Shown here: one piece after another, positions 1,310 to 54,367 of the stretch
How the letters are laid out: each line of letters starts with the position of its first letter
How positions within the stretch are numbered: the first letter of the stretch is position 1
From: a virus
IMG/VR virus record: IMGVR_UViG_3300010384_000002
Strand: one strand, 5' to 3'
DNA length: 64,000 nt
Program-made: the position numbers and the translations under genes
Notes under the pieces: generated by a model
The model's input: the letters and a program-made list of their open reading frames with translations, nothing else
Told to the model about the DNA's origin: nothing
Database searches by the model: none

Positions 1310-1324
1310 AGGCCGCCGTCAGAA

Positions 1325-2530: not shown

Positions 2531-2547
2531 TTATGTTCGCTCCCCGG

Positions 2548-16717: not shown

Positions 16718-16724
16718 GGGTGGA

Positions 16725-17147
16725 TTACAGGCCGGTACCGCTCACGTCCAGCGCGGCGAACTGCGCGTTGCTCGTGACGATGCGGTGCGCGGAGACTTCG
16801 ACGCTGCCGCCGGTGTAGGTACAGCCCTTGTACTCGCGCAGCACGTCGTTCTCGTCCTTGCCGTAGGTGGTGAACGTGAACACGTTGCCCTTGAGGACGA
16901 CGTCGGAGTTTTCCGCCGTGATGCCGGCTTGACGGCACAGATCCTTGATCAGCACCATCTTGGACACGCTCAGCGAGTGGCGCGCCTGACCGGGCACGTA
17001 CTCGACCACTTTCGCATCACCGATGCCCGACGCCGGCTCGTGGCCGTAGTCGTCGCTCATCTGGACGCTTTGCACCAGCCCGATATCCTTGCCGTCGAAC
17101 GAGACGACGGTGCGATTACCCGAGCGGACTTTCAGATTTTTCTGCAT
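16725..17147 (-). CDS. Tail tube protein
   Basis: 140-aa ORF directly after the sheath gene, with the size and position typical of myophage tube proteins. Confidence 0.75.
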   Translation of the reverse strand: MQKNLKVRSGNRTVVSFDGKDIGLVQSVQMSDDYGHEPASGIGDAKVVEYVPGQARHSLSVSKMVLIKDLCRQAGITAENSDVVLKGNVFTFTTYGKDENDVLREYKGCTYTGGSVEVSAHRIVTSNAQFAALDVSGTGL

Positions 17148-19967: not shown

Positions 19968-20039
19968 GGAACGAATGATCCCGTCACGACTCAGCGCGGT
20001 GCTATTGACGAGTCCGCGCACTGCGGATTATTGTCAGGT

Positions 20040-33500: not shown

Positions 33501-33873
33501 CGCCCGCCTTCTTCTTGCCCGGCGTGTGCGCCGTGACCTCGTGCCAGTGCACGCGATGCTCGCGGCCGGTGTCATCCGCCACCGTGGCGCCGTGCTCGCC
33601 GGCGGCGGACACTTCGCCCGAGCCATTGAACGCGCCGGCCGTGAACGCGACGTTGTCGCCCTCGGACACGTTGTGCGGGCCGAACTCGCCGCCGGCGGCG
33701 CAGGTCTTGAGCAGCGCCAGCAGTCCCACGAAATTCGGGTGCGACAGATCGACCTGCGGCTGCTTCGCGGCAGGCTTGTCCTGCCCCAGCTGGGCTTTGA
33801 GGTTCTTGTGGAAGTCGTCGGCCGCCTTCTTCTTGGCGCTGGGCGTGGGCAGCGCCTTGAACATCAGCATCAT
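33490..33873 (-). CDS. Hypothetical protein
   Basis: 127-aa ORF with an ATGA overlap with the portal stop. Confidence 0.55.
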   Translation of the reverse strand: MMLMFKALPTPSAKKKAADDFHKNLKAQLGQDKPAAKQPQVDLSHPNFVGLLALLKTCAAGGEFGPHNVSEGDNVAFTAGAFNGSGEVSAAGEHGATVADDTGREHRVHWHEVTAHTPGKKKAGDGK

Positions 33874-35645
33874 GGCATCAGGTCCTTGGGTTGGTAGACC
33901 GGCAGGCCGAACGCCTTGCCGAAATCGAAGTCGTTGCCGACGGCCGTCGGCGGCTCGCTGGTGGCCAGCTCCTTGGCGGCGCGCTTACCGGCGGGCGCCG
34001 GTTTGTCGTCATCGCCATCGGCGCCCTCGCCGTCGCCATCCTCCCCAGGTTGCGCAGCCTCGGGCGGCGTGATCAGGCCTTGCTGCTGCGCGCTGGCCAT
34101 GTACACCTGCATCAGGCTCGGGTTCACCGGCGCCTTGCCGATCAGCGGGTCCTCGTGCTCGGGCTGGCCATCGCGGGCGCGCATCTCGTCCACCGTCATG
34201 GTGAGCTTGCTGCGCTCGTGGCGCTTGTCCAGGTCCTCGGGGTCCAGGCCGGTGAAGCGGAACACCAGATCGGGCGAGAACTCCCCGACGACGTAGTCCG
34301 TGATCAGCTGCTGGAAGTACGACAGCAGAGGGCGCAGGCCGGAATCCTTCGAGGCGGTCAGTTTCTCCTCGGTGTCCGAGCCGGCCAGCGGGCTCGTGCT
34401 GCCGCCGCTGAACGAGTCGAAGTTGATTTCGGCCGGCGAGATCCCGTAAATCGCGCAGATCAGCGACGTGAGGAACGTCATCCACTTCGCGAAATACATC
34501 TCGTTGAACTCGACGTCGAATTTCTCGAACGAGGCCTTGCTTTTCTCGTCGGAGGAAACCATCACCGGCAGCGCCCAGGCGTTGTTCACGCCCTTGCACA
34601 TGGCATTCCAGTAGCGCTTGAAGGCGATGATGTCCTTGTCGTCGTACTTGCCGATGAGGTGCATCATCCCCTTGGGGATCGCGTTCGAGTCGAAGCCCTT
34701 GATGTTGTACGTCATGGCGTTCAGGTAGCCGGTGACGGTCTTCACCAGCAGCTCGACCTCGGAATGGCCATAGCCGGCCACCAGCACGTTGCTGCGCGGG
34801 TTGCGCGGCTCGTAGATCAGGTCGTCATGGGTGTATGGCGTGCAGATGCGGCCCTGCACCACCTGCAGGGCGAAGATGTCCGGGTTGCCTTGGTAGCCCT
34901 TGTCCGTGCACAGGCGGATCGTGGAGCCGTCGACGGCATAGAAGCCGGACACGCCCAGCTTCTTGTCGCGCTTCCATTCCACCTCGATCGCGGCCGAATC
35001 CATCGACAGCGTGTCGCGCGTGAGCTTGCCCATGAACTGGGCGAACGAGTCGCGGCCGAGCGCCTTGCGCAGGCGCGGCTTGAACTCCCAGCCGCAGTTC
35101 GAGATGAAGCGGTTCAGCTGGCGCACCTGCTCCTGCTCGGACTTCGTGAGGTGGTGGTCCTTGTCCATGTGGCGGATCTCGTAGCCGGGCAGGTCGTTGC
35201 CGCACTCGGACACCGCGCAAAAACGCTGCACCTGCCGCATGCGGGTGAGCACGACGGCCGACAGCACCGGGGTCTGATCCACGACCGCGCGCATCGAGTC
35301 GAACGACATCAGGCTGGGACGCTCCCAGTATTCCCCCTGCATGTTCAGCATGAACTCGTCGACCTGCACCGACTGCATGCCCGGCTTGCGGTTGCGCAGG
35401 TTGTTCGACGGGTACGGCACGATGTTGGCGCTCATCGCCTTGTTCACCATCAGGTGCTCGTCGGCCATGGCGAGAAAGTCGCGCAGGTGGCCCATGGGCG
35501 CCAGGTCGTTGGCGGTGGGCATATAGGCCTTTTGGAGCTCGGCAAGCGCATCGTTGCGCTCGTCCTGCGGAGCGTTCTGATTGAATGCCACCACGTCGGC
35601 GCGATCGCGCGCGCGGCCCCGGCGGCGCTGATGTTGGTCGGTCAT
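33870..35645 (-). CDS. Portal protein
   Basis: 591 aa. Size, position upstream of the MuF-like gene, and an acidic C-terminus are typical of portal proteins. It has an AGGAGG SD and a GTCGTGAC motif 32 nt upstream. Confidence 0.8.
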   Translation of the reverse strand: MTDQHQRRRGRARDRADVVAFNQNAPQDERNDALAELQKAYMPTANDLAPMGHLRDFLAMADEHLMVNKAMSANIVPYPSNNLRNRKPGMQSVQVDEFMLNMQGEYWERPSLMSFDSMRAVVDQTPVLSAVVLTRMRQVQRFCAVSECGNDLPGYEIRHMDKDHHLTKSEQEQVRQLNRFISNCGWEFKPRLRKALGRDSFAQFMGKLTRDTLSMDSAAIEVEWKRDKKLGVSGFYAVDGSTIRLCTDKGYQGNPDIFALQVVQGRICTPYTHDDLIYEPRNPRSNVLVAGYGHSEVELLVKTVTGYLNAMTYNIKGFDSNAIPKGMMHLIGKYDDKDIIAFKRYWNAMCKGVNNAWALPVMVSSDEKSKASFEKFDVEFNEMYFAKWMTFLTSLICAIYGISPAEINFDSFSGGSTSPLAGSDTEEKLTASKDSGLRPLLSYFQQLITDYVVGEFSPDLVFRFTGLDPEDLDKRHERSKLTMTVDEMRARDGQPEHEDPLIGKAPVNPSLMQVYMASAQQQGLITPPEAAQPGEDGDGEGADGDDDKPAPAGKRAAKELATSEPPTAVGNDFDFGKAFGLPVYQPKDLMP

Positions 35646-38006: not shown

Positions 38007-38258
38007 ATGACGGCAGAAGAAACTCGCGAAAACGACAACGACGGCTTCCCCACGAAAGAGGAAGTGGCGGAAGCACGGCGTATCGCCGGCGTCAGCCAAG
38101 AGCGCGCGGCGCAGTTGGTGGGTCTGACGTCTCATACCCGTTGGAGCGAATACGAGCGCGGCGTCCGCCGCATGGACCCGATGCGGTTCGAGATGTTCAA
38201 GATCAAGACCGGCCAGCATCCCGACTACGTGCCCCGTGGTCAGGCCATCACCTCTTAG
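38007..38258 (+). CDS. XRE/Cro-type HTH regulator
   Basis: MTAEETREND...AGVSQERAAQLVGLTSHTRWSEYERGVRRMDPMRFEMFKIKTG. AAGGA SD 6 nt upstream. The track ORF from 37644 is over-extended. Confidence 0.75.
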   Translation: MTAEETRENDNDGFPTKEEVAEARRIAGVSQERAAQLVGLTSHTRWSEYERGVRRMDPMRFEMFKIKTGQHPDYVPRGQAITS

Positions 38259-40929
38259 GCATCCAGAAAAAGCACGCCACGTCGCGAGCGCGCACCCTTA
38301 GCTCGCGCTCCAGGCAGTACTCCGCATCCGGGTCGAAGTTCTCGCACCCGCCGCAGGTCCCCATCTCCTCCACCATCTGCTGCTGTTCCGCGATCGCCTT
38401 GACCACCGGGCTGTTCGCCACCGCGCCGGCATTGGCCGTCGCCGTTGCCGGCTTGCTCTCCTCGGGGAACAGGAACATGGTCACGCCGTGCGCGCGCGCC
38501 CAGGCCACGTTCAGCAGCATGTAGGCGTACGAAAAGTGCGGGTCGATGCCGACCTTGACCACGCGCCGCGTGTATTTCTTTTCCTCGTCGTCCTTCTCGA
38601 CCACCAGGGCGGTGCGCGTGAAGTGCATGAACACGCGGTCCTTGAGCAGTGCGATGCGCACGCGCTCGCCCTTCGTGCCCTTTTCCAGCACCTCCTGATG
38701 CAGGCCGTCCGGGTTCGGGAACACCGTCACCTTGTTCTGGATGCGCTTCATGGCGACCTGCATGCACTTGTACTGGTCGAGCATGACGCTGTAGCGGTCT
38801 CGATCCTCCTCGTCGGTTTTTCTTTCGGCGTTCGACAGCGCGGCATCACCCCACCGCATCATGTCGTCGTCAATTTTTTGATAGCCGGCCAGGAACACCT
38901 TGCCGGGGTGACGGTTGGCGAAGCGCTTGGCGTCGTTGTAGTTCGGCAGTGTCTCGACCACGCAAACAGAGATGCCGTACTGCTCCATGAGCTCGTCGCA
39001 CCGATCGAACGGGCTGGCTTCCGGGTTTTCCGGCGTGGGCTGCGTCAGGATCTCCTCGACGTGCACGATGCCCAGGTGGCCCGTGGGCATGCGAATACCG
39101 ATGATGGCGACGTTGTACCCGCCCATCTGGTCGATGCCCATGTAGGCGCCGCTCGCGCGCGCCATCCATTGCAGGCCCAGGCGCATGCCCTCGGCCGCGC
39201 AGGCGTTAAGCATTTCGAGGTTCACCGGCACCTGTGACGGGTCGGTGTACGGCTTGCCCAGCACGCGGTTCCAGAAGTTCTTGAGGTCGTCCGCGTTGTG
39301 GTACTTGGTGATGATGTTGCGCGCGCTGATCGTGGGCGACAGGAATTGCGGGAAGTGCAGCGACACCGGCAGGATCGTGCCGTCCGCATCGACCCAGCGC
39401 TGCACCTCGATGGTGTTCTTCTTGTCGGTCGCGATCGTGACCCACTGGAGCGTGCCACGATGCGCGCGCCATTCGCCAATTTGCGGATCGTCGATCCAGC
39501 CATCGCAGCTCTTGCACACGTAGCGGTATTCCCGCGTGTCGTCGTCGTACCGGATGCAGGCAGGGAAGTACGAGTCGAGCGCGTGGTGTTCGCCGCAGTT
39601 CGGGCACAGCGTCCAGAACTGGTGCATCGTGCCCTGCTTGTACAGCCAGTCGATATCCTCGTCCGGCCAGTTCGCGGTCGACCCAGCCAGGGTGAACTTG
39701 ATGCGCGAGCCCGAGAGACGTTCTTTCGTCTTCTCGATCTGCTCCTTCGTCATCTCCTGCACCTCGTCCAGGGACAGGACGTCCAGCGGGATCGATTCGG
39801 TGGCGCCCTTGCCCGAGGTCCACATGAAGTGAAAGCGCGAGCGGCCCATGACGCGCACCAGCACATTGCCCTCGCCCTTGCTGGCGCCGGTGACAGCGTC
39901 GGTGGTGAGCAGCTGGTGGGCGGCCGGGATGGTGCGCAGGATCGGCATGAAGCGAATGGAGGACTTCACGCCGGCGAGGTTCATGTCCGGCAGGTACATG
40001 CCGATCTTGCACGGCATGAACTTGATGGCCATGTAGATCATGGCCAGCATCTCCATGACGGTGAACCCGACCTGCGTGCACTTCATCATCACCACGATGC
40101 GCTCGAACGCTTCCTCGATCGTTCCGGGGATCTGGTCGTACACGAACCACATGGCCGGCCGGTTATCGAGCTCGAACGGCATGTCGTCCACTTGCAGGCC
40201 GCTGGCGGCCAGGCGCAAGCACCAGTCGCGGAACGACTCGTCGGGCCCGATGATGGCCTGTTCGTCGGTGAGCTCGATGCCGTCGACGAAGGCGCCGCAC
40301 CGTTCCTGCTGGAAGGCCTCGGGCTTCATCCGCGCGCGATCGCGCTCCAGGGCCTCCATGTCAGCGTGCGGGTTCTCCTCCGTGGCCATGTGGAACACGG
40401 CGCTGTCCCGATCATCGTCGGCCATCCGGGCCATGCGCGCGAAGTCGTTGAACATGCCGGCCGGCTTGCCGAAGAACCACGCGCGGCCACGGTATCGGGT
40501 CAGCAGCGGTTCGATCGCGTTGGCCCAGGCGTCGGCCAGCTGCTCGATGTGCGGCGCGTCGTCGACGACGACCAGGGCGAACTGGTCCCACAGCCGGAAC
40601 GGCTTGTCCATGGCCACCAGCTGGATGACGCCGCCGCCGGTGCGCAGCACGATGCGATCGCGGTCCATGCGGCTCTGCGCGGAAATCAGCGGCTCGATCA
40701 TGCCGTAGATGCGGCGCTTGACCGCGTCGACCTCGTTTTCGGAGGGCAGCAGGATGGCGACGGGGAAGCCCCGGATGGCGCCGAACTTGGACGCCAGGGC
40801 GATGTCGATGGCCAGGGTCGTCTTGCCCGAGTCAATGCCGCCGGCCACGACGTTGAAGCGCGCCGGCGACGCGGCAATCCGCGCCTGCAGGGGAGTGAGC
40901 TTGGGGAGCTTGATGCGGAGTTCAGCCAC
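38248..40929 (-). CDS. Terminase large subunit: N-terminal Terminase_6-like ATPase fused to a complete GpA-type terminase
   Basis: The first module has Walker A GGIDSGKT, Walker B LVVVDD and ...FQQERCGAFVD. It is followed by the KCTQVGFT P-loop, a CPNCGEHH...CKSCDG zinc ribbon and a nuclease region typical of lambda gpA-like terminases. The proposed start is GTG 40929 (GAGG SD). ATG 41076 would need ~49 low-GC3 codons that contain regulatory motifs. Confidence 0.75.
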   Translation of the reverse strand: MAELRIKLPKLTPLQARIAASPARFNVVAGGIDSGKTTLAIDIALASKFGAIRGFPVAILLPSENEVDAVKRRIYGMIEPLISAQSRMDRDRIVLRTGGGVIQLVAMDKPFRLWDQFALVVVDDAPHIEQLADAWANAIEPLLTRYRGRAWFFGKPAGMFNDFARMARMADDDRDSAVFHMATEENPHADMEALERDRARMKPEAFQQERCGAFVDGIELTDEQAIIGPDESFRDWCLRLAASGLQVDDMPFELDNRPAMWFVYDQIPGTIEEAFERIVVMMKCTQVGFTVMEMLAMIYMAIKFMPCKIGMYLPDMNLAGVKSSIRFMPILRTIPAAHQLLTTDAVTGASKGEGNVLVRVMGRSRFHFMWTSGKGATESIPLDVLSLDEVQEMTKEQIEKTKERLSGSRIKFTLAGSTANWPDEDIDWLYKQGTMHQFWTLCPNCGEHHALDSYFPACIRYDDDTREYRYVCKSCDGWIDDPQIGEWRAHRGTLQWVTIATDKKNTIEVQRWVDADGTILPVSLHFPQFLSPTISARNIITKYHNADDLKNFWNRVLGKPYTDPSQVPVNLEMLNACAAEGMRLGLQWMARASGAYMGIDQMGGYNVAIIGIRMPTGHLGIVHVEEILTQPTPENPEASPFDRCDELMEQYGISVCVVETLPNYNDAKRFANRHPGKVFLAGYQKIDDDMMRWGDAALSNAERKTDEEDRDRYSVMLDQYKCMQVAMKRIQNKVTVFPNPDGLHQEVLEKGTKGERVRIALLKDRVFMHFTRTALVVEKDDEEKKYTRRVVKVGIDPHFSYAYMLLNVAWARAHGVTMFLFPEESKPATATANAGAVANSPVVKAIAEQQQMVEEMGTCGGCENFDPDAEYCLERELRVRARDVACFFWMPKR

Positions 40930-40958
40930 TGGGTGCCTCTGGTAGATCGAGGCACCCA
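40930..40958 (-). promoter_or_regulatory. 10-bp perfect hairpin abutting terminase GTG 40929
   Basis: TGGGTGCCTC-N9-GAGGCACCCA then GTG. The GAGG SD lies in the 3' arm. Confidence 0.7.
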
Positions 40959-41109
40959 GTGTTGCGTCACGACTCTGATTATCAGAGGGAAGTGGCCGAA
41001 CGGACGCTGCAGGGCGGGGCTCGGACCAACTGGGCGAATTTGCGAAATGCCCCTGATTATCACGGACATTTTGCATCTAACCGACGTAACGCCTCCTCTC
41101 CCCTATAAA

Positions 41110-41315: not shown

Positions 41316-41507
41316 TCAGGCGACGTCGGCATCGTCCAGGTCGATGATCAGCACCGGGAACGCCTTCGCCAGAAGGACCTCGCCGGATTCCTCGATCGCG
41401 GTCTGCCGGTCATCCCACGTTTGCAGGCATTCGGCATCCGGGCCGCTGCCGCCGATGGTGATGGGGATGATATGCGGGCCGCGCTGGATCACTGCAATGA
41501 AGGCCAT
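41316..41507 (-). CDS. Hypothetical small protein
   Basis: MAFIAVIQRGPHIIPITIGGSGPDAECLQTWDDRQ... ATG 41507 is in an ATGA overlap. Confidence 0.5.
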   Translation of the reverse strand: MAFIAVIQRGPHIIPITIGGSGPDAECLQTWDDRQTAIEESGEVLLAKAFPVLIIDLDDADVA

Positions 41508-42361
41508 CACTCGCCCCCGCTCTCGGGCGCGCAGGCGCCGCACGGGCCGCCGTTGAACATCTGGCTGCCGCCGCAGTGTTCGCACACAGGGTCCTGATCC
41601 ACGTAACCAGGGGCGCGCGGCATGCCGTCAACCTGCTCCAACAGGTCGGCGGCCAGCTCCGGATGCGTGTCGGCGCACGCGGCCGCATAGGCGTGAATCG
41701 CCGGGATCGCGTAGGGATCATGGTTCAGGTCCAGCACGAAGTTGAGACAGCCGTGGTGCTTCCCGCCCGGCAGATCGCTGCCGTCGACGCGGTACACGAG
41801 GAACTTGTGGAACAGGCCTTGCTCCTCGGCCGGCCTGTCCAGATCGCGCTCCTGCAACTGGAACGCCTTGTCGTCCACCCGATCCTCATGGATGGCCAAC
41901 GCGACGTTGTGCGCCTCGACGAAGGCCTTGCGCTCGTCCTCGGCGCCGACCACGCGCGCCGCATTGGCTTGGCCGCGCAGCCACGCCAACAGCCGCGACA
42001 TACGGCCCTTGCATGCGCCGGCCAAGCCCGCCCACCGGCCGGATTGTTCGACGCACTGCGCCAGCTGCTGCTCCAGCTCGGCCACGCGATCGCCGGCGGC
42101 GGCGAGATCCAGGCGCGCATGCACGTGCACGGCCGAGACGAACGCCGACAGCATCTCACGCGCGTCGGTTGCGTTGACGCCGTGCAGGTAGCCGCGCAGG
42201 CCGGTGGCGCGTGCAATCTCCAGCAGCTGGACCGGGTCAGGGGCGTGATCGGCGGGCAGCTTGGCCAGGGCTTCCAGCACGTCCTCGACGTTCTCCAGGC
42301 TGGTGCGAGTGAGGCCCTTGGCCGACATCGCGGCCATTACTTTGCGGGTGGTTTCATTCAT
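41507..42361 (-). CDS. Hypothetical protein
   Basis: 284-aa ORF with a Cys-rich C-terminus (CEHCGGSQMFNGGPCGAC). Confidence 0.6.
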   Translation of the reverse strand: MNETTRKVMAAMSAKGLTRTSLENVEDVLEALAKLPADHAPDPVQLLEIARATGLRGYLHGVNATDAREMLSAFVSAVHVHARLDLAAAGDRVAELEQQLAQCVEQSGRWAGLAGACKGRMSRLLAWLRGQANAARVVGAEDERKAFVEAHNVALAIHEDRVDDKAFQLQERDLDRPAEEQGLFHKFLVYRVDGSDLPGGKHHGCLNFVLDLNHDPYAIPAIHAYAAACADTHPELAADLLEQVDGMPRAPGYVDQDPVCEHCGGSQMFNGGPCGACAPESGGE

Positions 42362-43599: not shown

Positions 43600-44340
43600 T
43601 TAAAAAATACGCATTTGCAGGCCCTGCTCGCTTTCATCCACGAGCTTGTCCGCCTTGAGGACGTAGTCCCGCACGATGTGCTCGTTGTCCATCAGGCCGT
43701 GCGTGATCGGCGTTTGCCAGCGGTGGTTGATCTTCTGACGCTCGCCCACGAACTCGACCTTGATGTGTAGCGTGCCTTCCGCCGGCGTGCGCACGCGCTT
43801 CGCTTCGGCGTGGTCGACGTCCTGCAGCAGGGTGATCTGGTCGGTGACAGCGCCCATCGGTTCGCGGCGCACGAGCATGTCGCCGGCCTTGAACTGACGG
43901 CCCAGCGTGCGCAGGTACACGCCCAGCTGGCCGCGCTGCTCGCCTATCCCGCCGCTCGTCGCGCGCACGCGGGCATACGCTTCCAGGAAGCGGGCCGTGC
44001 GCAGGAGCGCCACGTAGACGTCCGCCACCGCACGATACAGCGCGCCGCCGGCGATGAACACCTCGTTGAAGGCCTTGCCCTCGAACTGGGCCACATCGAG
44101 GCCCTTGGCGATCAGCTCGCGCTGACGCTCCTCCGTCATGGGCTGCTCGTAGCTCTCGACCAGGGCGTCGGCGTGCACCAGGCCGTGCTTGGCCGAGATG
44201 ATGTACACGTCGGGCTGATTCTCGGCCGGCATCCACTTGCGCAGCACGTCGAACATGACACCCTGATACAGGTCGATCGCGCGGTGCGTGCCCGCCAGCT
44301 TGCGCCCGGAACAGGCAATCAGCAGCAGCGGGCGCGTCAC
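43600..44340 (-). CDS. DUF6884-like protein
   Basis: The N-terminus MTRPLLLIACSGRKLAGTHRAIDLYQGVMF resembles the DUF6884 family as I recall it. Confidence 0.5.
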   Translation of the reverse strand: MTRPLLLIACSGRKLAGTHRAIDLYQGVMFDVLRKWMPAENQPDVYIISAKHGLVHADALVESYEQPMTEERQRELIAKGLDVAQFEGKAFNEVFIAGGALYRAVADVYVALLRTARFLEAYARVRATSGGIGEQRGQLGVYLRTLGRQFKAGDMLVRREPMGAVTDQITLLQDVDHAEAKRVRTPAEGTLHIKVEFVGERQKINHRWQTPITHGLMDNEHIVRDYVLKADKLVDESEQGLQMRIF

Positions 44341-46002: not shown

Positions 46003-46961
46003 TCTTTTTTCATATTAAGTTCATCGCCAAGCGATAGGATTTTCCGATCAACTTCCGTGTTCAGAACGGACGGCAATTGGTCCCTCGGAACGAGCTTGAC
46101 GGCCTGCGCTTCCCAGCCCATGTGCGCCGGCGAGCCGCCCACGCGCCGGGCGCGGTAGTAGCGCGCCACGGTGGTGGTGCGCTCGATGTCGCCCCAGTAG
46201 CCGGTGATTTCCACCTGCAGCCCGGTTTCCTCGAACGTCTCCTTGATGGCCACGGCTTGGAACGACAGGCCCGGCTCGTGGCGCCCCTTCGGGAACGTGG
46301 CCTCGTAGCCGCCGAACTGGTTGGTTGGGCACATGACCCACACGCGGCCGTCGGGCTCCTCGATGATGACGCCGGCGGCGCGCTCCTTGGGTTTGCCGCT
46401 CGCGGCCTTGGCCACCTTCATCAGCGGCTCGTCCAGGTCCTGCATCTGGCCGGGGACGTTGGCCCAGCCCTCGGGCGAGGTCGGCGCATCCTCCCACGGC
46501 GCGAACGCGACGCCGCCCAGCTCGGCCGGCACATCGCAATCGGGCACGAACGTGGCCACGGCCTTGGGGTCCGCCCAGGTGTCCGGAGGGCTCTGTTCGC
46601 TCGGCTCGTTGATGGTTATGGTCTCGCCCTTATCGCCCTCCTGCGGGTGCGTGATCGCATTCGGGTATTTGGGCGCCGCCGGCGCCGCATCGAACAGGTC
46701 GTCGGCCCACTTCTTGGCGGCCGGCTTGCCGCCGTACTGCGGACCGACCACGCCCTTGGGCTTCATGAACAGGGCCAGCTGCTTGCCCTTGGCGTGCACC
46801 TTCGTCTCGTGCGCGGGCACGAATGTGCCGTCGCCCTTGGTGTAGGCGGCCACGTGGGCCTTGGCCAGCGGCATGTTCATCTTGACGCTTTGCGCCATGC
46901 CGATCAGTTTGCCATCGAAGAACACGACCACCTTGCCGCTATTGATCATGCCTCCCATCAT
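45999..46961 (-). CDS. Nudix hydrolase with N-terminal extension
   Basis: The real start is MMGGMINSGK at ATG 46961 (ATGA overlap). Nudix box: GRHEPGLSFQAVAIKETFEETGL. Confidence 0.75.
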   Translation of the reverse strand: MMGGMINSGKVVVFFDGKLIGMAQSVKMNMPLAKAHVAAYTKGDGTFVPAHETKVHAKGKQLALFMKPKGVVGPQYGGKPAAKKWADDLFDAAPAAPKYPNAITHPQEGDKGETITINEPSEQSPPDTWADPKAVATFVPDCDVPAELGGVAFAPWEDAPTSPEGWANVPGQMQDLDEPLMKVAKAASGKPKERAAGVIIEEPDGRVWVMCPTNQFGGYEATFPKGRHEPGLSFQAVAIKETFEETGLQVEITGYWGDIERTTTVARYYRARRVGGSPAHMGWEAQAVKLVPRDQLPSVLNTEVDRKILSLGDELNMKKD

Positions 46962-47455
46962 GCCCCCTTGCGTTTCGCCGAGCCGGTCAGCATGCGGATC
47001 AGCTGCTGCACGCGCTGGCCCATCTTCATGTTGGCCATGTCGTCGTCGCCATCCTTGAGCGCGTCGACGACGGCCCACACGAGCCACGCATACAGGACCT
47101 GATACGGATCGTCGCCGTGCTTGGCGCGCTGGCCCTGCCAGTAGTGCCCCAGGTCCGCCTTGATGGTTTCCTGCAGGCCGCCCACGCGCGTGTTCCAGCC
47201 CTCGATCGGCAGGTACGCCGGGTTCTCGCCAGCGAAGTCGCGGGCGAACGCCGCCGCGCGCTCATGCGCACGGGCGGTCATCTCCTGCGCCTCCATCGTT
47301 CCAGCGCTGCGCGCCTTGACCCATTCCAGGATCTCGGTCAGGTAGGGCTGGACGATGCCGGCCACCACGTTCGGGTTGCCCAGGTAGTTGGGGGCCATCT
47401 GCTGCTCGAACGACGGCGGCAGATCGGTGAAACGATCGGTGCGATTTTGGTCCAT
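46958..47455 (-). CDS. Hypothetical protein
   Basis: 165-aa ORF. Confidence 0.55.
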   Translation of the reverse strand: MDQNRTDRFTDLPPSFEQQMAPNYLGNPNVVAGIVQPYLTEILEWVKARSAGTMEAQEMTARAHERAAAFARDFAGENPAYLPIEGWNTRVGGLQETIKADLGHYWQGQRAKHGDDPYQVLYAWLVWAVVDALKDGDDDMANMKMGQRVQQLIRMLTGSAKRKGA

Positions 47456-47456
47456 A

Positions 47457-50400
47457 TCACACGGTCCTTGCGAAAGATTTAACGAATATTACCACCCGCT
47501 TACGCAGAGCGGCAGTTGCTGCTGGGAAAATGACGAGCGATTTCCCCAGCTTGCCCAGGCCTCCCACCTCGGCCACATAGCCCTCGTGCGGCGGCAGCGC
47601 GAGCAGGTCCAGGGTGATACCGTCCGGGCTGGAGGCGTTGCCCTTCTTGACGCCCAGGACGACGAAGCGCTGGCCCATCAGGGTGGTCACCTCCATCTCG
47701 CCCCCGCCGTTCTTGTGCACGTAGTTGCCCTCGGCGTCTTGGCCCGAGCCGGCGAAGCGGCCCGACCCGAGCGACGCCATGGCCTTGGCGCCCTTGGCGA
47801 ACTTGATGTTCAGGTAGGCGCCCGAGCCGAATTTCGCGTTGTCGCCCCAGTCCTTGAAGATCGACGTGCACATGGAGTCAGCATTCTGGAACACCAGGCC
47901 GGCGCCCTCCTTGAGCAGTTGCTGCTTCATCGTGTCCGGCAGGTTCATCCAGCGGCCGACGGTTTCGCCCTCCTCGAACTCATAGGCCTCGTTGTAGATC
48001 GTGCTGGCCAGCTGTTGCGCGCCGCCGCTGTACGAATGGCCCTTCGAGCTGATGCTGATGGTCTTGTCGCCCTTGTTCCAGAAGCGGTTCGCTGCGCCCG
48101 AGTCCTGAATCGAGTTGACCAGGGCCTTGGTGGCCGTGGACACGCCCTGATACCACTTCTTGGCCTTGGTCACGAAATCGGTTTTGAGATAGCTGGTCTT
48201 CGGCGGGACCAGGTCCTTGACCACATCGGCGCCCACGTGGCCGAGCTTCATCCAGAAACCGATGACCTTGTCCGAGGAGATGGTGTTGATGTTCTCGCCC
48301 GGCTTGATGTAGCCGGCCGCCTCCGACACTTCCTCGATCGAGCCGCCGCCGATCGGGGGCAGGTCCAGGCCTTCAACGGGCGGGTGCGCGATCGCGGACA
48401 GCAGGTCGCACAGCGCGGCGTGGTGGTTCTTGATGTCCTTGGACGGGTGCTGTCCGATCGGCTTTTTGCCCAGGTAGGCGCCGGTTTCCTTATCGTAGGC
48501 GTCGTAGTGGTAGTCCTGCAGCGCCTTGAGATTGCCCTGCTTGGCGAACTCGATCAGGGCCGCGTCGTCGACCGTGTTCTGGTCGTTGATGTGCTTCTTG
48601 GACGACAGCGGGCCGCCCTTGCCGGGGTAGTTGTTGAAGTCGATGGGCGGCGGCAGGTCGGACGTGTTCACGGCCAGCTTGGTGATGTCTGGCGCCGGCG
48701 CGTTCCACGGGTCGGCGATGCCCAGCTTTTTCAGGATGAACTCGCGGCGCGCCACCAGCTTGGACGCCAGGGCCTCCTGCTCGGCGCGCGTGCCCGGACC
48801 GAACGTACGGCACAGCTTATCGATCTGGTTCGGGTGCATCTTGGCCAGCACGGCGCCGCCGGTCTCGAGATCCGCCGGCGTGATCTTGCCGAACACGGCG
48901 GCCGAATTCGCGTTCTTGGCCGGGTCCAGCAGCGTGTCCAGCTCGGTGACGGTTTCACCGAAGGCGTCGCCCTTCTTGCTGCCCTGCGCGCGGTAGATCA
49001 GCGAGCCGCCGACGTCGACGCGCACGGCCTTGCCGTCCTTGAGCAGCATGTTGTCGTTGGACAGGCCGACGACGTCCCAGTTGGCCAGCCACGCATCGAA
49101 CACGAACCCTTTGTGCGCGCCCTCGGCGCCGGCCAGCGCGGCCGCGTCACCCTTCGTCAGGCCATCCACCCACTTCGAGGCGATGCCCAGTTGGCCCGCG
49201 CGCTTGACCAGGCGCAGCTCGGGCACGTCGACACCCAGCATCTGGTAGAACTTCGCGGCCAGCAGCTCGTTTTTCACCGTGTCCGGATCGCTCGGGAATT
49301 TGCAGTACCACTCCTGACCCTTCGCGTCCTTGAAGCGGCCGCCGGGGTTGGAACCCTTCTGCGGCCCGGTCTGCTCCCACGTGTCCGCCACCATGGCGCT
49401 GACCTTCCCCACCTTCACGGTGGTGGGCACCGACATCGTCGGCGCGGCGCTGGCCGTCGACGCGGCAGCTGCTGGGGCTGGAGCGGCCGCCGGTGGCTCG
49501 CTGGCGCCCTTCGTGCCATCCATCGCAGCCACGAGATACTTGGCATATTTGGCCATGGCTTGCGCATTGGCGCCATAAGTCGAGCCGTCCGGGTTGATGG
49601 CCTTCCAGCCCACCGCCTTCACGTGCCCAGCTGGAGTCATCTTGACCAGCTTGGCCAAGCCCTCCGCGCCGCCGCTTTCCGCCGCCGCCTTGAGGGCCTT
49701 CATCGTCTTGGTCATCTTGATGGAGTTTTTGCCCGACAGCTTCGGCATGGGCACGCTCGCGGCTTTCTCCTTGAGCACCTTGGGATCGGTACCCATCTTG
49801 TGCCACCGGCCGTTCTCGAACACCAGCATGCCGTCGGCGCCCTGCTTCGTGTCGCCGTCCTTCGGGCCCTGCTCGGCGGCTGCCGGCGCGGTGGCGCCGC
49901 TCTGCTCGGCCTCCAGCTTCGCATACGCCTGCACCGCCCAGGCCAGCACCGGCTCGAAACCCTGCACCTCGTCGATGCCATCGATCAGCTTGCCCAGCTT
50001 CTTGGTCGACTTCTCGGCGTAGGCGGACTGGACCGCCTGCAGCGCCATCTGTGCGCCGCTGCTCAGCTGGGAGACATCGGGCAGCGGAATGTCCGCCGGC
50101 GCGGCGGGCTTGGCTTGCAGGTAGGCCAGCGCCTGCTCGCCATACGCCAGGATCAAGCCGGCGTTCGTGAACGGCGGGATCGGCTTGTCCCCGAATGGCG
50201 CCTTGAGTTCGGCAAGGGCGCTCTCGATCGTCGCGGGGATGCCCTGCTCCAGGCCCACCTCGATCGCATGCGCGTACGCATGGAGGCCGGTTATCTCGGG
50301 CTTTTCTGGCTTCGCCGGCGGCGCGGCGGGCGCGGTACCGGCCAGCGCGTGCTCGTGCAGCTGGACGAGTTTGTTTTCGGCCTTGATCGCGCTCATGTCG

Positions 50401-52634
50401 TCGTCCATGGGCAAGTCCATGTGCATCGCCAAGTCCGCCATCGCCTCGGCCTTCTCGTCAAGCCAATGATCCTCATTCGACAGCTTGAGCGCGTTCATGG
50501 CCTCGGCCTGCGCCTTCGTCGGTACCATGCCCGATCCGATCGCGGCTTTCCATCCGCCGACCAGGGCGTCCTGCTTGTCGGCATCCGACAGGCCCGGCTC
50601 AGCCGCCGGCTCGGCGCCTTCCAGGTGGGCGATAGCGGCCGTGATGTACTGGTGGATCGGCGCGAAGCTCAGCATGCCCTCGGTGGAGGCCTGCATGAGT
50701 TCCAGCTTGGCCAAGTTCCCGGTGGCGAAGTAGTGCTCGACGTCCTTGAGTACTTCGATCTTCGATGGGCTCATACCCTCCGTCGACGGCGGCACCGGAA
50801 CGCTGGCGGCCGGCGCAGCTGCTGGCGCGGGCGCGGTGGCCGGTTCCTTGACCTTGATGCTCACCACCTTGAGTTTCGGGTGCTCGCCGGCCTTCTGCCC
50901 CGGCGCCACCTGATGGCGCGAGCCCAGGAATTCCAAGGCCTCGTTGGCCAGCTTGGCGGCCTTCTTGCCGTAGGTGTTCGTGCCGTAGCTCATGGCCAGC
51001 AGCGCGTCCTTGTCGCCTGCCTGCAGCGCCGCGATGATGGCGTCCACCTTCGGGTTGAACGCCTTGGCGTTCGTGTTCGACAGCGGCACCTTGGCATCGT
51101 GGAAGGCGTCGACCAGCTGCTGCACGGCCTTGCCGTCGTCCGGCTCGGCGGTGGCGGCGGCCACCTTCGCATCGTGCGCCGGATCAGCGGCCGGCGCCGG
51201 CTCGTAGGTGGCCGCGTATTCGTCGTAGCCCAACGTGGTCAGCACCGATGCCAGCTCGGCCTCATGACCAGGATGCGCGGCGATCCATTCCTGCGCGGCC
51301 TCCTTGACCGTCTTCGGGCCGTTGGCGGCGTCTATCACGAACGCCATGGCGGGCGTATCTGCCGCCGACAGGACCCAATGCCCGTCTTTCAGCACCAGCG
51401 TGCCACCCTTGCCTTCCTTGGTGTCGCCTTCCTTCGGACCCGCGTCGACTGGCGCAACAGCGACCGGCGTCACGCCCTTCGCCTGCGCCAGCGCGGCCGC
51501 GTGCAGGTCCACCAGCAGCTTGCTGTTCACCGTCTTGCCCTTCCACGACGCCTTTTCCGGGTTCGGCATGGCCTCCAGGCCTGCGACGTCGCCGGCGGCC
51601 GCCAGGGCGATGATCTTGGCGCTCACGCCCTCGTAGTACTTCTTGACGCCGGTGGTCGTCTTGCCCTCGACGAATTCGGGGACCGTCAGGCCGGTGGTCT
51701 GCTGCGCTGCCGCTGCGGCCTCCATCTTCGGGGCCTTGATGGCGGCCGGGTCGATGTAGTCGCTCATCTGCTTCGGGTAGAAGCCATTCGCCTGCAGGTG
51801 GCCCTGCTCCTTGCTGGCCAAGTGGGCATTGATCTGGCCCTTGGCGTTCGTGGCGCCGGTGTTCAACACCCAATACTCGGTGCCGTGCGCATCGGTGAAC
51901 GTAGGCGTTCCGGCCTTCTCGTGCTTGGTGTTGTAGGCGGCCTTGGCCTCGTCCAGCTTGTCGATGGCAGCGGCCTGCTGCGCAGACAGCGTAGGCGCGG
52001 CGCTGGCGGGCTTTTCTGGCTCGGCCTTGGGCTCGACCTTCGACGCCGGCGCGGAGGCCTTGGCGGGCTCCTGCTGGGCCGGAATATTTTTCGGAATATT
52101 TTGCGGTTCGTTTTGTAGCTCGGCCGGCTTCTCATTCGCCGGCGGCTGCTTCGCCACCCAGGCGGCGTATTCCGCGTCCATCGCGGCGCCCTTGCCTGCC
52201 GCGTGCACGGCCTCGGTGATGGCCTGCTGTTTGTCCGCCGGCGCGGCGTGGAAGTGCTTCCATTCGCCCGCCGTCGGCGCCTGCCCGGCGAGCAGCTTTT
52301 TCTTGAGCGTGGCCAAGCGCGCGGCCGCCGATTCCGCGTCCTGAATCTGCGTCGCGTGATGCATGACCAGGGCGGCCTGATCCTCGGCGCTCATGCCCGC
52401 GAAGCCGGGTTCTTCCTTGAGCGCCGTATGGGCTTTCTTCTGGCTGTACGTGCCGGCGCCGCCGGCAACCTTGTGATGGTCGTGGTCATCGGAGACGTGC
52501 ACCATGGCGAAGTGGCCGCCGACCACCTGCCCGTTTTTCTTGGTGAACTGCGGAATCCAGACCTGCTTTTTGACGGTGGCTTTCAGGAAGAAAACCGGGG
52601 CACCGTAGGTGTGTGCGTGTTGGGTATCGAGCAT
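47457..52634 (-). CDS. Giant polyvalent protein: repeats + atypical protein-kinase-like domain + C-terminal ADP-ribosyltransferase
   Basis: About 1725 aa. The kinase-like region (about 48700-49370) has WYCKF, NELLAAKFY, FDAWLANWDVVGLSNDN and DVGGSL motifs. The ART R-S-E pattern is GRWMNL, DSMCTSIF and GGGEMEV (EME at 47691-47699). ATG 52634 has a GAGG SD. The track start is TTG 52640. Confidence 0.75.
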   Translation of the reverse strand: MLDTQHAHTYGAPVFFLKATVKKQVWIPQFTKKNGQVVGGHFAMVHVSDDHDHHKVAGGAGTYSQKKAHTALKEEPGFAGMSAEDQAALVMHHATQIQDAESAAARLATLKKKLLAGQAPTAGEWKHFHAAPADKQQAITEAVHAAGKGAAMDAEYAAWVAKQPPANEKPAELQNEPQNIPKNIPAQQEPAKASAPASKVEPKAEPEKPASAAPTLSAQQAAAIDKLDEAKAAYNTKHEKAGTPTFTDAHGTEYWVLNTGATNAKGQINAHLASKEQGHLQANGFYPKQMSDYIDPAAIKAPKMEAAAAAQQTTGLTVPEFVEGKTTTGVKKYYEGVSAKIIALAAAGDVAGLEAMPNPEKASWKGKTVNSKLLVDLHAAALAQAKGVTPVAVAPVDAGPKEGDTKEGKGGTLVLKDGHWVLSAADTPAMAFVIDAANGPKTVKEAAQEWIAAHPGHEAELASVLTTLGYDEYAATYEPAPAADPAHDAKVAAATAEPDDGKAVQQLVDAFHDAKVPLSNTNAKAFNPKVDAIIAALQAGDKDALLAMSYGTNTYGKKAAKLANEALEFLGSRHQVAPGQKAGEHPKLKVVSIKVKEPATAPAPAAAPAASVPVPPSTEGMSPSKIEVLKDVEHYFATGNLAKLELMQASTEGMLSFAPIHQYITAAIAHLEGAEPAAEPGLSDADKQDALVGGWKAAIGSGMVPTKAQAEAMNALKLSNEDHWLDEKAEAMADLAMHMDLPMDDDMSAIKAENKLVQLHEHALAGTAPAAPPAKPEKPEITGLHAYAHAIEVGLEQGIPATIESALAELKAPFGDKPIPPFTNAGLILAYGEQALAYLQAKPAAPADIPLPDVSQLSSGAQMALQAVQSAYAEKSTKKLGKLIDGIDEVQGFEPVLAWAVQAYAKLEAEQSGATAPAAAEQGPKDGDTKQGADGMLVFENGRWHKMGTDPKVLKEKAASVPMPKLSGKNSIKMTKTMKALKAAAESGGAEGLAKLVKMTPAGHVKAVGWKAINPDGSTYGANAQAMAKYAKYLVAAMDGTKGASEPPAAAPAPAAAASTASAAPTMSVPTTVKVGKVSAMVADTWEQTGPQKGSNPGGRFKDAKGQEWYCKFPSDPDTVKNELLAAKFYQMLGVDVPELRLVKRAGQLGIASKWVDGLTKGDAAALAGAEGAHKGFVFDAWLANWDVVGLSNDNMLLKDGKAVRVDVGGSLIYRAQGSKKGDAFGETVTELDTLLDPAKNANSAAVFGKITPADLETGGAVLAKMHPNQIDKLCRTFGPGTRAEQEALASKLVARREFILKKLGIADPWNAPAPDITKLAVNTSDLPPPIDFNNYPGKGGPLSSKKHINDQNTVDDAALIEFAKQGNLKALQDYHYDAYDKETGAYLGKKPIGQHPSKDIKNHHAALCDLLSAIAHPPVEGLDLPPIGGGSIEEVSEAAGYIKPGENINTISSDKVIGFWMKLGHVGADVVKDLVPPKTSYLKTDFVTKAKKWYQGVSTATKALVNSIQDSGAANRFWNKGDKTISISSKGHSYSGGAQQLASTIYNEAYEFEEGETVGRWMNLPDTMKQQLLKEGAGLVFQNADSMCTSIFKDWGDNAKFGSGAYLNIKFAKGAKAMASLGSGRFAGSGQDAEGNYVHKNGGGEMEVTTLMGQRFVVLGVKKGNASSPDGITLDLLALPPHEGYVAEVGGLGKLGKSLVIFPAATAALRKRVVIFVKSFARTV

Positions 52635-52681
52635 GTGCAAACCTCATGGGAGATTGCTCTACCGTACCGTCACGACAGGCG

Positions 52682-52709
52682 AAAAAAAGGCCGGCTTTGC
52701 GGGCCGGCC
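52682..52709 (-). terminator. Intrinsic terminator between the phosphatase and giant genes
   Basis: Minus-sense GGCCGGC-CCGCAAA-GCCGGCC followed by TTTTTTT. Confidence 0.85.
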
Positions 52710-52773: not shown

Positions 52774-53664
52774 TCAAGCCGCGTTCGCCAGCGCCGGCGG
52801 CCGTACCGCGTAGATGCTGCCGGTGGCCGGCTCCACGCACGTCAGGCCGTGCTGCGCGCTCGCGTTCGGGCGGCTGGCCAGGAAGGCACCCGTGTCGATG
52901 AACACGTGGCTGCCGATGCGGCCGACTTCCTGCACGATCGAGTGGCCCACGAACGTGGGCGACAGGCCCTCGTGCTTCGCCTCGTCGACCTTGCCGTCGA
53001 TGAGGTCGCGGCCCCAGGTGACGCACAGCGGCACAGGATGCGCGGTGGTGATGTTCTCCAGCGCGTCGTCCAGGGCCTCGTCAGGGCCGTGGAATTCGGC
53101 GTGGATCACGTTGAACGTGCGCACGAACTCGGTCCATTCGCCTTTCTGCACGGTCTTGCCCACGACGATGGCCAGCGGCAGTTCGGCCACCTCGGCCGCG
53201 ATGTCCAGCAACTCCTCGCGCGTGATCGTGGTGGCCCAGGCGCCGCCCTGCTGAATCCACGCCTGCCAGTTGAAATTCGGCTGGCACGCGGCATCGAGAA
53301 TGTACTGCTCGTGATTGCCGGCCACCGCCTTGAACCACGGCTCACGGATCAGCGCGAGGCACTTGAGCGAGTCAGGTCCGCGGTCGCCCAGGTCTCCCAC
53401 GGAGAACATGCGATCGCGCTCCTTATCGAAGCTGATCTTGTCCAGCAGCTGCATGAACAGGCCATAGCAGCCGTGCAGGTCGCCCACGACGAAATCGCGG
53501 CCCTCGGTATTTTCTTCGTATCGTTTCAACAGGTTCAACGGTTCAGCTCCGATAGGTGCCGCCGGCGGCGTCTCGGCCTCCTGCTTGGCCGCGAACGCGC
53601 GCGGGTCGGACAGGGCAGCGGCGCAGGCCACGGCGATCAGGGATGGTTTCAGGATGCGGTTCAT
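52774..53664 (-). CDS. Ser/Thr protein phosphatase (lambda PPase-like metallophosphoesterase) with Sec signal peptide
   Basis: The real start is MNRILKPSLIAVACAAALSDPRAFA-AK at ATG 53664. Motifs GDLHGC, GDLGDRG and GNHE. The track ORF to 54264 is over-extended. Confidence 0.75.
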   Translation of the reverse strand: MNRILKPSLIAVACAAALSDPRAFAAKQEAETPPAAPIGAEPLNLLKRYEENTEGRDFVVGDLHGCYGLFMQLLDKISFDKERDRMFSVGDLGDRGPDSLKCLALIREPWFKAVAGNHEQYILDAACQPNFNWQAWIQQGGAWATTITREELLDIAAEVAELPLAIVVGKTVQKGEWTEFVRTFNVIHAEFHGPDEALDDALENITTAHPVPLCVTWGRDLIDGKVDEAKHEGLSPTFVGHSIVQEVGRIGSHVFIDTGAFLASRPNASAQHGLTCVEPATGSIYAVRPPALANAA

Positions 53665-53831
53665 TCGGGACACTTCTCGCAAAAGGGGGCGGTAACGGGG
53701 TTCTTGTGGTTGCAGGTAGCGCAGGTCCAGCCGGGCCGCGCCAGCAGCTGGGCGGCCGGGTGAGCCTTGGCCAGCTGCTCGCGCTCGGGCGCCGGCGCGG
53801 CGGCCGGCTCGATGGCATTGATGTCGAGCAT
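53661..53831 (-). CDS. 56-aa RanBP2-type zinc-finger protein (not in ORF track)
   Basis: Hand translation: MLDINAIEPAAAPAPEREQLAKAHPAAQLLARPGWTCATCNHKNPVTAPFCEKCPE. It fits W-x-C-x2-C-x3-N-x6-C-x2-C exactly. ATGA overlaps at both ends, and high GC3. Confidence 0.65.
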   Translation of the reverse strand: MLDINAIEPAAAPAPEREQLAKAHPAAQLLARPGWTCATCNHKNPVTAPFCEKCPE

Positions 53832-54367
53832 CAGGCCGCTTTCGGCTTGCGGCCAATCTCGGCCGCCGGCGGGAATGGCCAGGGCGCGGGCGGCAGCACG
53901 GTGCGCAGCGGCTGCTCGGGCTCGATCGGGACGGCCGGCGTGACCGGGAGCGCGAGCGGCAACCCCTCGGCCACCAGCTGCTCGTCGATGTTGGCCAGCT
54001 GGGCCTGCAGCGCATGCTTGGCCGGCGCGTCGCCGTAGACCGCGACGGCATCGCCCAGGCCAACGGACTGGCGCAGCACAATCGTGTCGGTGGTCGCCTG
54101 CGTGCCGACGGGCATGCGCTCGACAATGCCGCCTGCAGCTGGCTCATCCGGCAGATCGATGAGCGGGCCACCGGCGTCTCGCGCCTCCATCTCGATGCCC
54201 TCGATGCGACAGGCCTGCGTGATGTTGACCAGGGCGCCGTCGTCGGGCACGCACAGCAGTTCAATTTTCACGATGCCCTCGATCAGCTTGCCGGTTTCGG
54301 CGTCGACGACGCGGATGCCGCGCGCATCCGGACCGCCGGTGATGAGGATGCGGCGCAGCGTGGTCAT
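53831..54367 (-). CDS. Hypothetical protein
   Basis: The real start is MTTLRRILITGG at ATG 54367 (ATGA overlap). Confidence 0.55.
   Translation of the reverse strand: MTTLRRILITGGPDARGIRVVDAETGKLIEGIVKIELLCVPDDGALVNITQACRIEGIEMEARDAGGPLIDLPDEPAAGGIVERMPVGTQATTDTIVLRQSVGLGDAVAVYGDAPAKHALQAQLANIDEQLVAEGLPLALPVTPAVPIEPEQPLRTVLPPAPWPFPPAAEIGRKPKAA

Follow-up and report, generated by a model that had tools for sequence, protein, structure and literature searches.

Polyvalent proteins of phages and conjugative elements, with DarB of phage P1 as their prototype, were defined by Iyer et al. 2017 (PMC5512222). The ADP-ribosyltransferases (ARTs) described there are of an H-Y-D type ('ART-PolyVal'), with the R-S-E ARTs of the Alt/VIP2 kind said to be absent from genuine polyvalent proteins, and the kinases are Ser/Thr/Tyr-type domains lacking the C-lobe, found mainly in phages of Verrucomicrobia and Bacteroidetes (PMC5512222). 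Iyer et al. 2022 (PMC9503650) reported Alt/VIP2 ARTs fused to MuF or encoded beside terminase and portal genes, along with Nudix proteins packaged in heads, and mention no kinase partner; the survey of MuF toxins by Jamet et al. 2017 (PMC5576092) mentions no kinase either. From the two studies by Iyer and colleagues, both a head-delivered multi-enzyme effector and a packaged ART are thus already known ideas. Here we analyse a gene from IMG/VR virus record IMGVR_UViG_3300010384_000002, presented as a stretch of 64,000 nucleotides (nt) that is called the window below. This myovirus gene encodes a protein of 1725 amino acids (aa) in which a protein-kinase-like domain precedes an R-S-E ART.

Like the described polyvalent proteins, this phage protein is of very large size, strings several effector domains on linkers and is predicted to be delivered with the DNA, and it has unnamed modules in common with carriers of LPD1, InPase and PBECR3; its kinase-like and ART domains give it the at least two effector domains by which such proteins are recognised. 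It departs from the set of 2017 in that its ART is of the R-S-E type and its kinase HipA/CtkA-like. With T4 Alt and other head-packaged Alt/VIP2 ARTs it shares the R-S-E type with E-x-E, a location in the vicinity of packaging genes and a probable injection for early modification of host proteins, whereas it lacks both MuF and a T4-like context and has its ART tied to a kinase-like domain, a 165-aa partner and a Nudix hydrolase. MuF fusions, the mark of MuF polymorphic toxins, occur among relatives of the kinase domain, in one case as MuF-kinase-ART, whereas the protein studied here has no match to PF04233. Literature searches returned no description of a kinase-ART pair, although their coverage was incomplete and the absence is not proof. 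An earlier reading made from the sequence only had called this combination undescribed, which still stands for the searchable literature. The combination is not peculiar to this genome—a large family already sits in deposited phage genomes, its kinase part unannotated. Three things appear to be undescribed so far: the HipA/CtkA-like kinase family as such, the near-obligate pairing of this kinase with an R-S-E ART, and a fixed escort of small protein and Nudix hydrolase. The gene and its C-terminal features are as follows.

47457..52634, minus strand: gene for the 1725-aa polyvalent protein (open reading frame call, start codon, codon composition)
52642..52645, minus strand: GAGG ribosome-binding site, 7 nt 5' of the ATG (sequence)
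48657..49412, minus strand: protein-kinase-like domain K, aa 1075-1326 (alignment, AlphaFold model, Foldseek)
aa 1094-1099: kinase motif GSNPGG (glycine loop)
aa 1108-1113: kinase motif EWYCKF
aa 1122-1130: kinase motif NELLAAKFY
aa 1179-1195: kinase motif FDAWLANWDVVGLSNDN
aa 1205-1212: kinase motif RVDVGGSL
48117..48656, minus strand: middle region M, aa 1327-1506
47580..48152, minus strand: R-S-E ADP-ribosyltransferase domain, aa 1495-1685 (family profile, homologues, motifs)
aa 1559-1564: ART motif VGRWMN
aa 1587-1593: ART motif SMCTSIF
aa 1643-1651: ART motif GGGEMEVTT
47460..47579, minus strand: C-terminal hydrophobic/basic tail of 40 aa, aa 1686-1725 (comparison with relatives)

The gene is one unbroken open reading frame (ORF) on the minus strand, 47457-52640, which opens with TTG; the likelier start is the ATG at 52634-52632, giving 1725 aa up to the stop codon at 47457-47459. 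GC content at its three codon positions (0.64/0.45/0.88) is as in other real genes of the window. The closest relative in our protein collection, P0001, is 1726 aa long and has matching ends, which counts against an artefact of frameshift or fused ORFs. Among 50,697 phage records, megablast gave no match to the gene. The single 5.2-kb frame with real composition and a high third-position GC content, as the sequence-only reading had it, thus proved intact, and every motif that it quoted is present where it had been placed.

We begin with the ART domain. When the ART region of this protein alone (aa 1500-1725) was searched, there was no Pfam match; an iterated search, on the other hand, placed a homologous C-terminal ART domain in 103 of 107 relatives, and in homologues collinear with our protein the domain passes the cut-offs of PF03496 and PF01129. 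A profile of ten diverse members (alignment A2), compared with solved structures, matched VIP2 best (1qs2, E 8e-13) and also 45 other ART chains; CDTa, iota toxin Ia, C3 exoenzymes, C2-I, SpvB, Vis and others came after VIP2. Both glutamates of the E-x-E motif in the ARTT loop (E1646 and E1648) are invariant in A2 and aligned with the ExE of VIP2. In the S-T-S motif, here C1589-T1590-S1591, the serine at 1591 is invariant and the threonine nearly so, and members of the family have either Cys or Ser at the first position; R1561 aligns with the arginine of the VIP2 YRW motif and is Arg in eight of the ten sequences and Lys in the other two. Judged by profile and motifs, the C-terminal domain belongs to the R-S-E ARTs of the Alt/VIP2/C3 kind, as had been proposed from its motifs alone, and it very probably has both the ART fold and catalytic competence. 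By the clade rule for the ExE form, arginine would be the likely acceptor of ADP-ribose. Compared with VIP2, CDTa, iota Ia and C3 (PF03496), which are its best profile matches with Arg, S-T-S and E-x-E aligned, the domain is only ~20-25% identical, reads C-T-S, carries a 16-aa insertion before ExE and presumably has a bacterial target rather than actin or Rho.

Two side observations concern this domain. The insertion of 16 residues, AGSGQDAEGNYVHKNGGG, immediately precedes the catalytic ExE (aa ~1627-1645; window 47682-47760, minus strand) and falls in the loop by which related ARTs select their substrates. Of the ten aligned ARTs, our protein is the only one to have it, and a similar stretch is found in the closest relative, P0001. 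The tail that follows the ART, ending …KSLVIFPAATAALRKRVVIFVKSFARTV, is common only to the closest homologues (P0001-P0004 and P0014).

No model in Pfam, PHROG or NCBIfam covers the kinase-like domain, the only hit for the whole protein or its segments being a weak sub-threshold match to HipA_C. This family (PF07804) scores 13.9-16.8 bits in our protein against a gathering threshold of 30.5, is the sole recurrent Pfam family among relatives (sub-threshold in 6 of 15) and reaches at most 25.7 bits among the MuF-fused ones; we rejected membership of HipA_C because scores stay under threshold. Searched by sequence against solved structures, a profile of the kinase domain plus region M gave spurious matches only. 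The borders of the domain (profile positions ~36-290, corresponding to aa ~1075-1326) were drawn on the basis that some relatives carry the kinase domain only. In an alignment of 15 diverse sequences (A1), ten positions are invariant—G1094, N1096, G1098, G1099, K1112, E1123, N1185, D1187, N1195, and D1207. An AlphaFold2 model built on A1 has a mean pLDDT (predicted local distance difference test) of 80.6, with the core above 90; in it, K1112 ends a β-strand, E1123 lies in the next long helix, the N-x-D motif comes after a helix and D1207 after a β-hairpin. As modelled, the conserved residues are thus placed as in a canonical kinase, on the β3, αC, catalytic-loop and DFG-equivalent elements.

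Foldseek searches of the Protein Data Bank (PDB) with this model gave CtkA of H. pylori as the top match (E 4e-5, probability 1.0, template-modelling (TM) score 0.54 on the target, root-mean-square deviation (rmsd) 7-8 Å), followed by an N-terminal fragment of Legionella LepB and many eukaryotic protein kinases, such as TTK, IRAK4 and ACVR1, and further on by N-acetylhexosamine and aminoglycoside kinases and HipA; the Foldseek probability was 1.0 for CtkA, TTK and HipA alike. Among viral models (BFVD), matches were to Gordonia phage proteins, to Ser/Thr kinases of giant viruses and to a haloarchaeal-virus protein annotated 'PI3K/PI4K catalytic domain'. A kinase-like fold is thus highly likely from the model, and the sequence-only reading, which had picked out equivalents of the Lys, the Glu, the catalytic D..N and the DxG, is borne out by a confident AlphaFold model with CtkA, LepB and HipA among its structural matches. 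The modelled fold is closest to the HipA/CtkA branch, and the domain lies outside any curated family. It shares with the E. coli persistence kinase HipA and the secreted H. pylori kinase CtkA the same order of Lys, Glu, N-x-D...N and D-x-G, and differs in lacking the HipA N-terminal domain and a HipB partner and in having a longer catalytic loop. T7 Gp0.7 is likewise a phage kinase that reprograms host proteins early in infection, but it belongs to another kinase family, is expressed early, has no ART fusion and is not virion-borne.

We consider the domain to be, with fair probability, an active phosphotransferase working on proteins. Kinase folds such as SelO and SidJ do non-kinase chemistry, with SidJ regulating the SidE ART, and our domain could similarly be something other than a protein kinase—a small-molecule or lipid kinase, an enzyme of AMPylation or glutamylation, a regulator of the ART, or a partner of ART and Nudix in joint chemistry on NAD or ADP-ribose products. 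We regard this as unlikely. Similar Foldseek scores were obtained for N-acetylhexosamine kinase, aminoglycoside phosphotransferase and the lipid kinase-like LepB, and the domain recurs with ARTs and in Nudix fusions; however, CtkA, a protein Ser/Thr kinase, gives the best match and, with HipA after it, the only compact ones (rmsd 7-8 Å, TM 0.5), and the full Lys/Glu/Asp/Asn/Asp set for phosphotransfer is invariant. The domain is also found without an ART, as in gp67 of Gordonia phage GodonK and in many MuF-kinase proteins, which argues that it is not a mere ART accessory.

The pairing of the two domains recurs across a very large set of relatives. The profile of kinase plus region M, searched against 1.84 billion cluster representatives, found 5,556 proteins at E ≤ 1e-3, of which 2,708 reached E ≤ 1e-30. 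Kinase followed by ART was the arrangement in 215 of 226 proteins inspected, four of the 226 have two or three kinase copies ahead of the ART, and one has five kinase copies; in P0105 the order is reversed, ART then kinase, and its gene belongs to a structural module on a podovirus-like contig. Relatives are found at 267 loci of IMG/VR, and the architecture of 80 of these was examined. Kinase and ART share one ORF in 53 of these, nearly always with genes for a small protein and a Nudix hydrolase next, within about 1 kb, and often with TerL 2-6 kb further on. The remaining 27 lack an ART by the profile used; of six sampled, five are MuF fusions. One of the five, at locus L083, is MuF-kinase-ART with an ART of another R-S-E subfamily, a type also present in three more, unsampled loci. 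Kinase-like domains in BFVD are fused to the HK97 portal, to Nudix domains and to ARTs. In Gordonia phage Forza a kinase-domain protein follows the portal gene, with a separate R-S-E ART two genes on, and in GodonK the kinase-domain protein (gp67) also comes after the portal and has no ART. We therefore rejected an obligatory kinase-ART pairing, given GodonK gp67 and the many MuF-kinase proteins without a recognisable ART.

Some relatives have other architectures. Tandem kinase copies, two to five per protein, occur in P0170, P0146, P0224, P0209 and P0215; P0170 (3416 aa) has five, with no ART recognised by the profile used. The MuF-kinase fusion at L085:4148-9325 (plus strand, 1726 aa) has an intein splicing-domain match at aa 232-532, between its two parts. 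The protein encoded at L090:6470-12238 (plus strand, 1923 aa) begins with the kinase-like domain close to its N-terminus, has DUF7178 further on and is encoded 57 nt upstream of a portal-like gene.

The same arrangement of genes is found in cultured phages. When the C-terminal 805 aa were compared with translated phage records, eight cultured phages emerged, with genomes of ~86-95 kb, in which one gene spans the kinase-to-ART block: Aeromonas ST4; Pseudomonas Dolphis, Jeremy and Touem01; Escherichia ECML-606-1; Enterobacter phiT5282EW; Morganella Mecenats66; and Yersinia fHe-Yen8-01. For Gordonia phages and one Actinomycetia phage, the match was confined to the kinase part. Mecenats66 is a myovirus by morphology and is most closely related to Dolphis and Bordetella phage PHB04 (PMC9503643). 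The large protein, a protein of ~165 aa and a Nudix hydrolase, with TerL further downstream, come in the same order in ST4, ECML-606-1 and fHe-Yen8-01, as they do amid phage-type genes in the chromosome of Kaistia sp. 32K, where these neighbours indicate that the copy is probably a prophage. Dolphis has the same three genes, and its linear record ends before any terminase gene. The small partner proteins are 20-24% identical, yet align with common motifs. In the window, which is a myovirus genome, the genes listed below lie on the minus strand, all of them downstream of the kinase-ART gene apart from the first entry and the terminator.

52774-54264, minus strand: 496-aa protein with a NinI/PrpA-type Ser/Thr phosphatase, directly upstream
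52689..52709, minus strand: intrinsic terminator, 7 G-C pairs followed by T7, which ends the upstream phosphatase gene (sequence)
46958..47455, minus strand: partner gene, 165 aa, which starts 1 nt after the stop codon
45999..46871, minus strand: Nudix hydrolase, start approximate; third member of the conserved triad
43600-44340 and neighbours, minus strand: several small genes including DUF6884
41507-42361, minus strand: FGE-like protein
38248-41076, minus strand: gpA-type large terminase
33870-35645, minus strand: portal
27160-28620, minus strand: major head protein
17164-18882, minus strand: tail sheath
11726-14623, minus strand: large tail/lysin protein
5055-7725, minus strand: baseplate

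The kinase-ART gene heads a co-oriented block that runs through TerL, portal, capsid, sheath and baseplate. This position at the head of the late genes, the MuF and portal fusions found elsewhere in the family, and the long linkers and modules of the protein make packaging and co-injection the best-supported reading, and virion delivery in this phage appears moderately likely. In the GenBank record of fHe-Yen8-01, the homologue gp129 is labelled 'ADP-ribosyltransferase toxin' and 'phage particle associated protein', and the next two genes, for the small protein and the Nudix homologue, are labelled 'particle associated protein'. The modules common with the LPD1/InPase/PBECR3 proteins, the particle-annotated homologue, and the MuF and portal fusions all fit what had been suggested from the sequence, namely a polyvalent, injected effector.

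The protein might also act without being packaged, either after its own synthesis in the cell, like T4 ModA/ModB and T7 Gp0.7, or by serving the phage late. The terminator closes the preceding phosphatase gene, so the kinase-ART gene begins its own transcription unit, which would suit such a role, as would the metabolic-type genes that separate it from TerL. The particle annotation of the Yersinia homologue and its two partners, the repeated fusion of the kinase domain to head proteins, and long unstructured linkers with a modular N-terminus, typical of ejected polyvalent proteins (Iyer 2017, PMC5512222), speak against it, and we rate it as rather improbable. A tape measure or other structural protein was a further candidate, rejected on the ground that the large protein of tail and lysis type is encoded elsewhere (11726-14623).

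We also weighed a toxin directed at eukaryotic cells or rival bacteria—cargo of lysogenic conversion, like VIP2, C3 or MuF toxins, with the small protein as immunity factor. The closest solved ART structures are indeed eukaryote-directed toxins, the tightly coupled small downstream gene recalls a toxin-immunity pair and one copy resides in a bacterial chromosome. However, neither a signal peptide nor a secretion domain was recognised, most carriers are lytic-type myoviruses of ~90 kb that come from soil, water and sewage, the small partner is itself annotated as particle-associated, and a variable N-terminus joined to conserved C-terminal enzymes is the reverse of what polymorphic toxins show. 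This makes such a toxin very improbable.

The explanation that we favour, and hold to be reasonably probable as a whole, is a virion-delivered two-enzyme effector. In a myovirus of the Dolphis/Mecenats66 kind, this large effector of several domains would be expressed along with the late structural genes, be packaged in the virion and enter the host cell together with the DNA. The C-terminal 650 residues would form a two-enzyme warhead, in which an atypical HipA/CtkA-like kinase may phosphorylate host proteins using ATP and a mono-ADP-ribosyltransferase of the VIP2/C3/Alt type (E-x-E) may modify host proteins, most likely on arginine, using NAD+. The N-terminal ~1000 residues would consist of non-enzymatic small helical or β modules on flexible Ala/Pro-rich linkers, probably for packaging, ejection or target binding, and the small partner protein and the Nudix hydrolase would travel with the large protein. 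The analysis itself shows the identity of the domains, the conservation of their catalytic residues, the conserved triad of genes and the link between the kinase domain and head proteins in other phages; from these we infer catalytic activity, the substrates, packaging in this phage and a role in host takeover or counter-defence.

Several observations weigh against this explanation. Virion association rests on the annotation note in one related GenBank record, that of fHe-Yen8-01, which we treat as an annotation claim, since no paper behind it was found. The gene lies ~6 kb upstream of TerL, with non-structural genes (Nudix, DUF6884, FGE-like) in between, and no MuF (PF04233), portal or known capsid-targeting sequence was detected in the protein, a point that also favours a protein that is not packaged. 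On the enzymatic side, the protein alone falls below every Pfam threshold for both enzyme domains, the TM-scores of the kinase are moderate (best 0.54), hhalign against E. coli HipA aligned 36 columns in the αC region at a probability of 2%, and the S-T-S motif of the ART has Cys at its first position.

The kinase-like domain, the ART and a co-packaged Nudix hydrolase might form one pathway on one target, as opposed to three separate effectors; we consider this doubtful. In one possible form, ADP-ribosylation would be followed by Nudix trimming to phosphoribose, as in SidE-like systems, or by phosphorylation of the adduct, leaving a mark irreversible by host hydrolases; in another, the kinase fold would do non-kinase chemistry that gates the ART. 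If true, this would be a new composite protein-modification system from a phage head.

In contrast to the C-terminal enzymes, the N-terminal ~1000 aa contain no recognisable further enzyme in profile or structure searches. They are built from the following modules.

52125..52634, minus strand: N1 module, aa 1-170, conserved at the extreme N-terminus in 25 homologues
51735..51953, minus strand: β-sheet module, aa 228-300, common to the InPase/PBECR3 polyvalent protein P0107
51450..51704, minus strand: helical H module, copy 1, aa 311-395
51372..51440, minus strand: GPKEGDTK...GHW repeat 1, aa 399-421, a predicted three-stranded β-meander
50859..51107, minus strand: helical H module, copy 2, aa 510-592
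49797..49868, minus strand: GPKDGDTK...GRWHK repeat 2, aa 923-946
49470..49730, minus strand: weak third copy of the H module, aa 969-1055 (domain E 0.005)

The H module is ~75 aa long, follows the pattern MPxFxEGKxxxGVxxYYE...AGD/NxxxLE...GKTxNSKxLLxLHAxAL and occurs in 356 copies across 110 proteins. Both GPK(E/D)GDTK repeats noted from the sequence alone were found, as were the linkers, in the form of stretches rich in Ala, Pro, Lys and Glu (for example, aa 161-220). The motif GPKxGDTKxGxxGxLVxxxG[HR]W is present one to three times per protein in 103 of 107 homologues, a recurrence that rules out chance, and it is almost invariant in proteins that are otherwise 30-40% identical. Such strong conservation suggests a candidate binding or processing site. 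In P0001-P0103, one copy of a 23-aa form, GPKxGDTKxGxxGxLVxxxG[HR]W[HV]K, always lies ~150 aa ahead of the kinase domain. The motif had no family match; a WGR domain (PF05406) was tried and rejected, there being none in our protein and the WGR of homologues falling between the repeats.

A model of aa 225-470 is confident (pLDDT 89.5) and comprises a four-stranded sheet, a three-helix module, the three-stranded GPK meander and a small helical bundle; Foldseek found nothing significant for it, the best matches being small SH3-like barrels (E 0.065). By sequence, neither the N-terminal 1040 aa nor alignment A5 matched any solved structure. Three stretches (aa 228-301, 316-379, and 515-602) have counterparts in P0106 and P0107, textbook polyvalent proteins with LPD1, InPase, PBECR3 and a methyltransferase, while none of the named LPD Pfam domains matched in our protein. 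Among close relatives the N-terminal modules are reshuffled and the C-terminal 800 aa collinear. Region M (aa 1327-1506), between the two enzymes, is specific to the fused kinase-ART family: in the AlphaFold model its first half folds confidently as α-α-β-β-α, with motif likeness to a diverged H module, and its second half consists of low-confidence helices running into the ART.

Other genes of the neighbourhood call for brief mention. The phosphatase is the C-terminal half of the 496-aa upstream protein (PHROG, E 4e-49), whose first 240 aa have no assignment, and the NCBIfam model for protein-serine/threonine phosphatases matches that protein at E 2.7e-28, under its curated cut-off; the phage thus carries a phosphatase adjoining its kinase-like effector, and Dolphis has a related metallophosphoesterase a few kb from its own kinase-ART gene. 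The genes that separate the Nudix hydrolase from the terminase include those for a protein resembling FGE/sulfatase-modifying factor and for a DUF6884 protein. At 942 aa the large terminase is of unusual length, with two different TerL PHROG families on aa 58-278 and 278-865, and its relatives are those of the Mecenats66/Dolphis/PHB04 clade, reported with a distinct headful packaging subtype. Local GC content drops to 0.58 at window positions 20001-22000, against 0.63-0.68 elsewhere. In Dolphis (locus L002), positions 1-3000 and 16695-16970 contain MazEF, a PAPS reductase-like gene, a DNA methyltransferase, a short 'adenylosuccinate synthase' and a gene annotated 'CRISPR repeat binding protein', which suggests that this phage group carries DNA-modification and counter-defence cargo.

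Virion-delivered enzymes act ahead of phage gene expression and thus shape the first seconds of infection; to our knowledge, few besides T4 Alt, P1 Dar and the N4 vRNAP have been investigated. The family delimited here is very large (cluster representatives in the thousands, 267 loci in IMG/VR). It centres on a probably phage-delivered, so far unannotated HipA/CtkA-like kinase domain, usually joined to an arginine-type ART and accompanied by a Nudix hydrolase, and supplies concrete residues for mutation as well as cultured carriers for tests (Dolphis, ST4, Mecenats66, fHe-Yen8-01, and ECML-606-1). Annotation pipelines now call such proteins only 'ADP-ribosyltransferase' or 'hypothetical', and many phage genomes would gain a better annotation from a model of the kinase domain.

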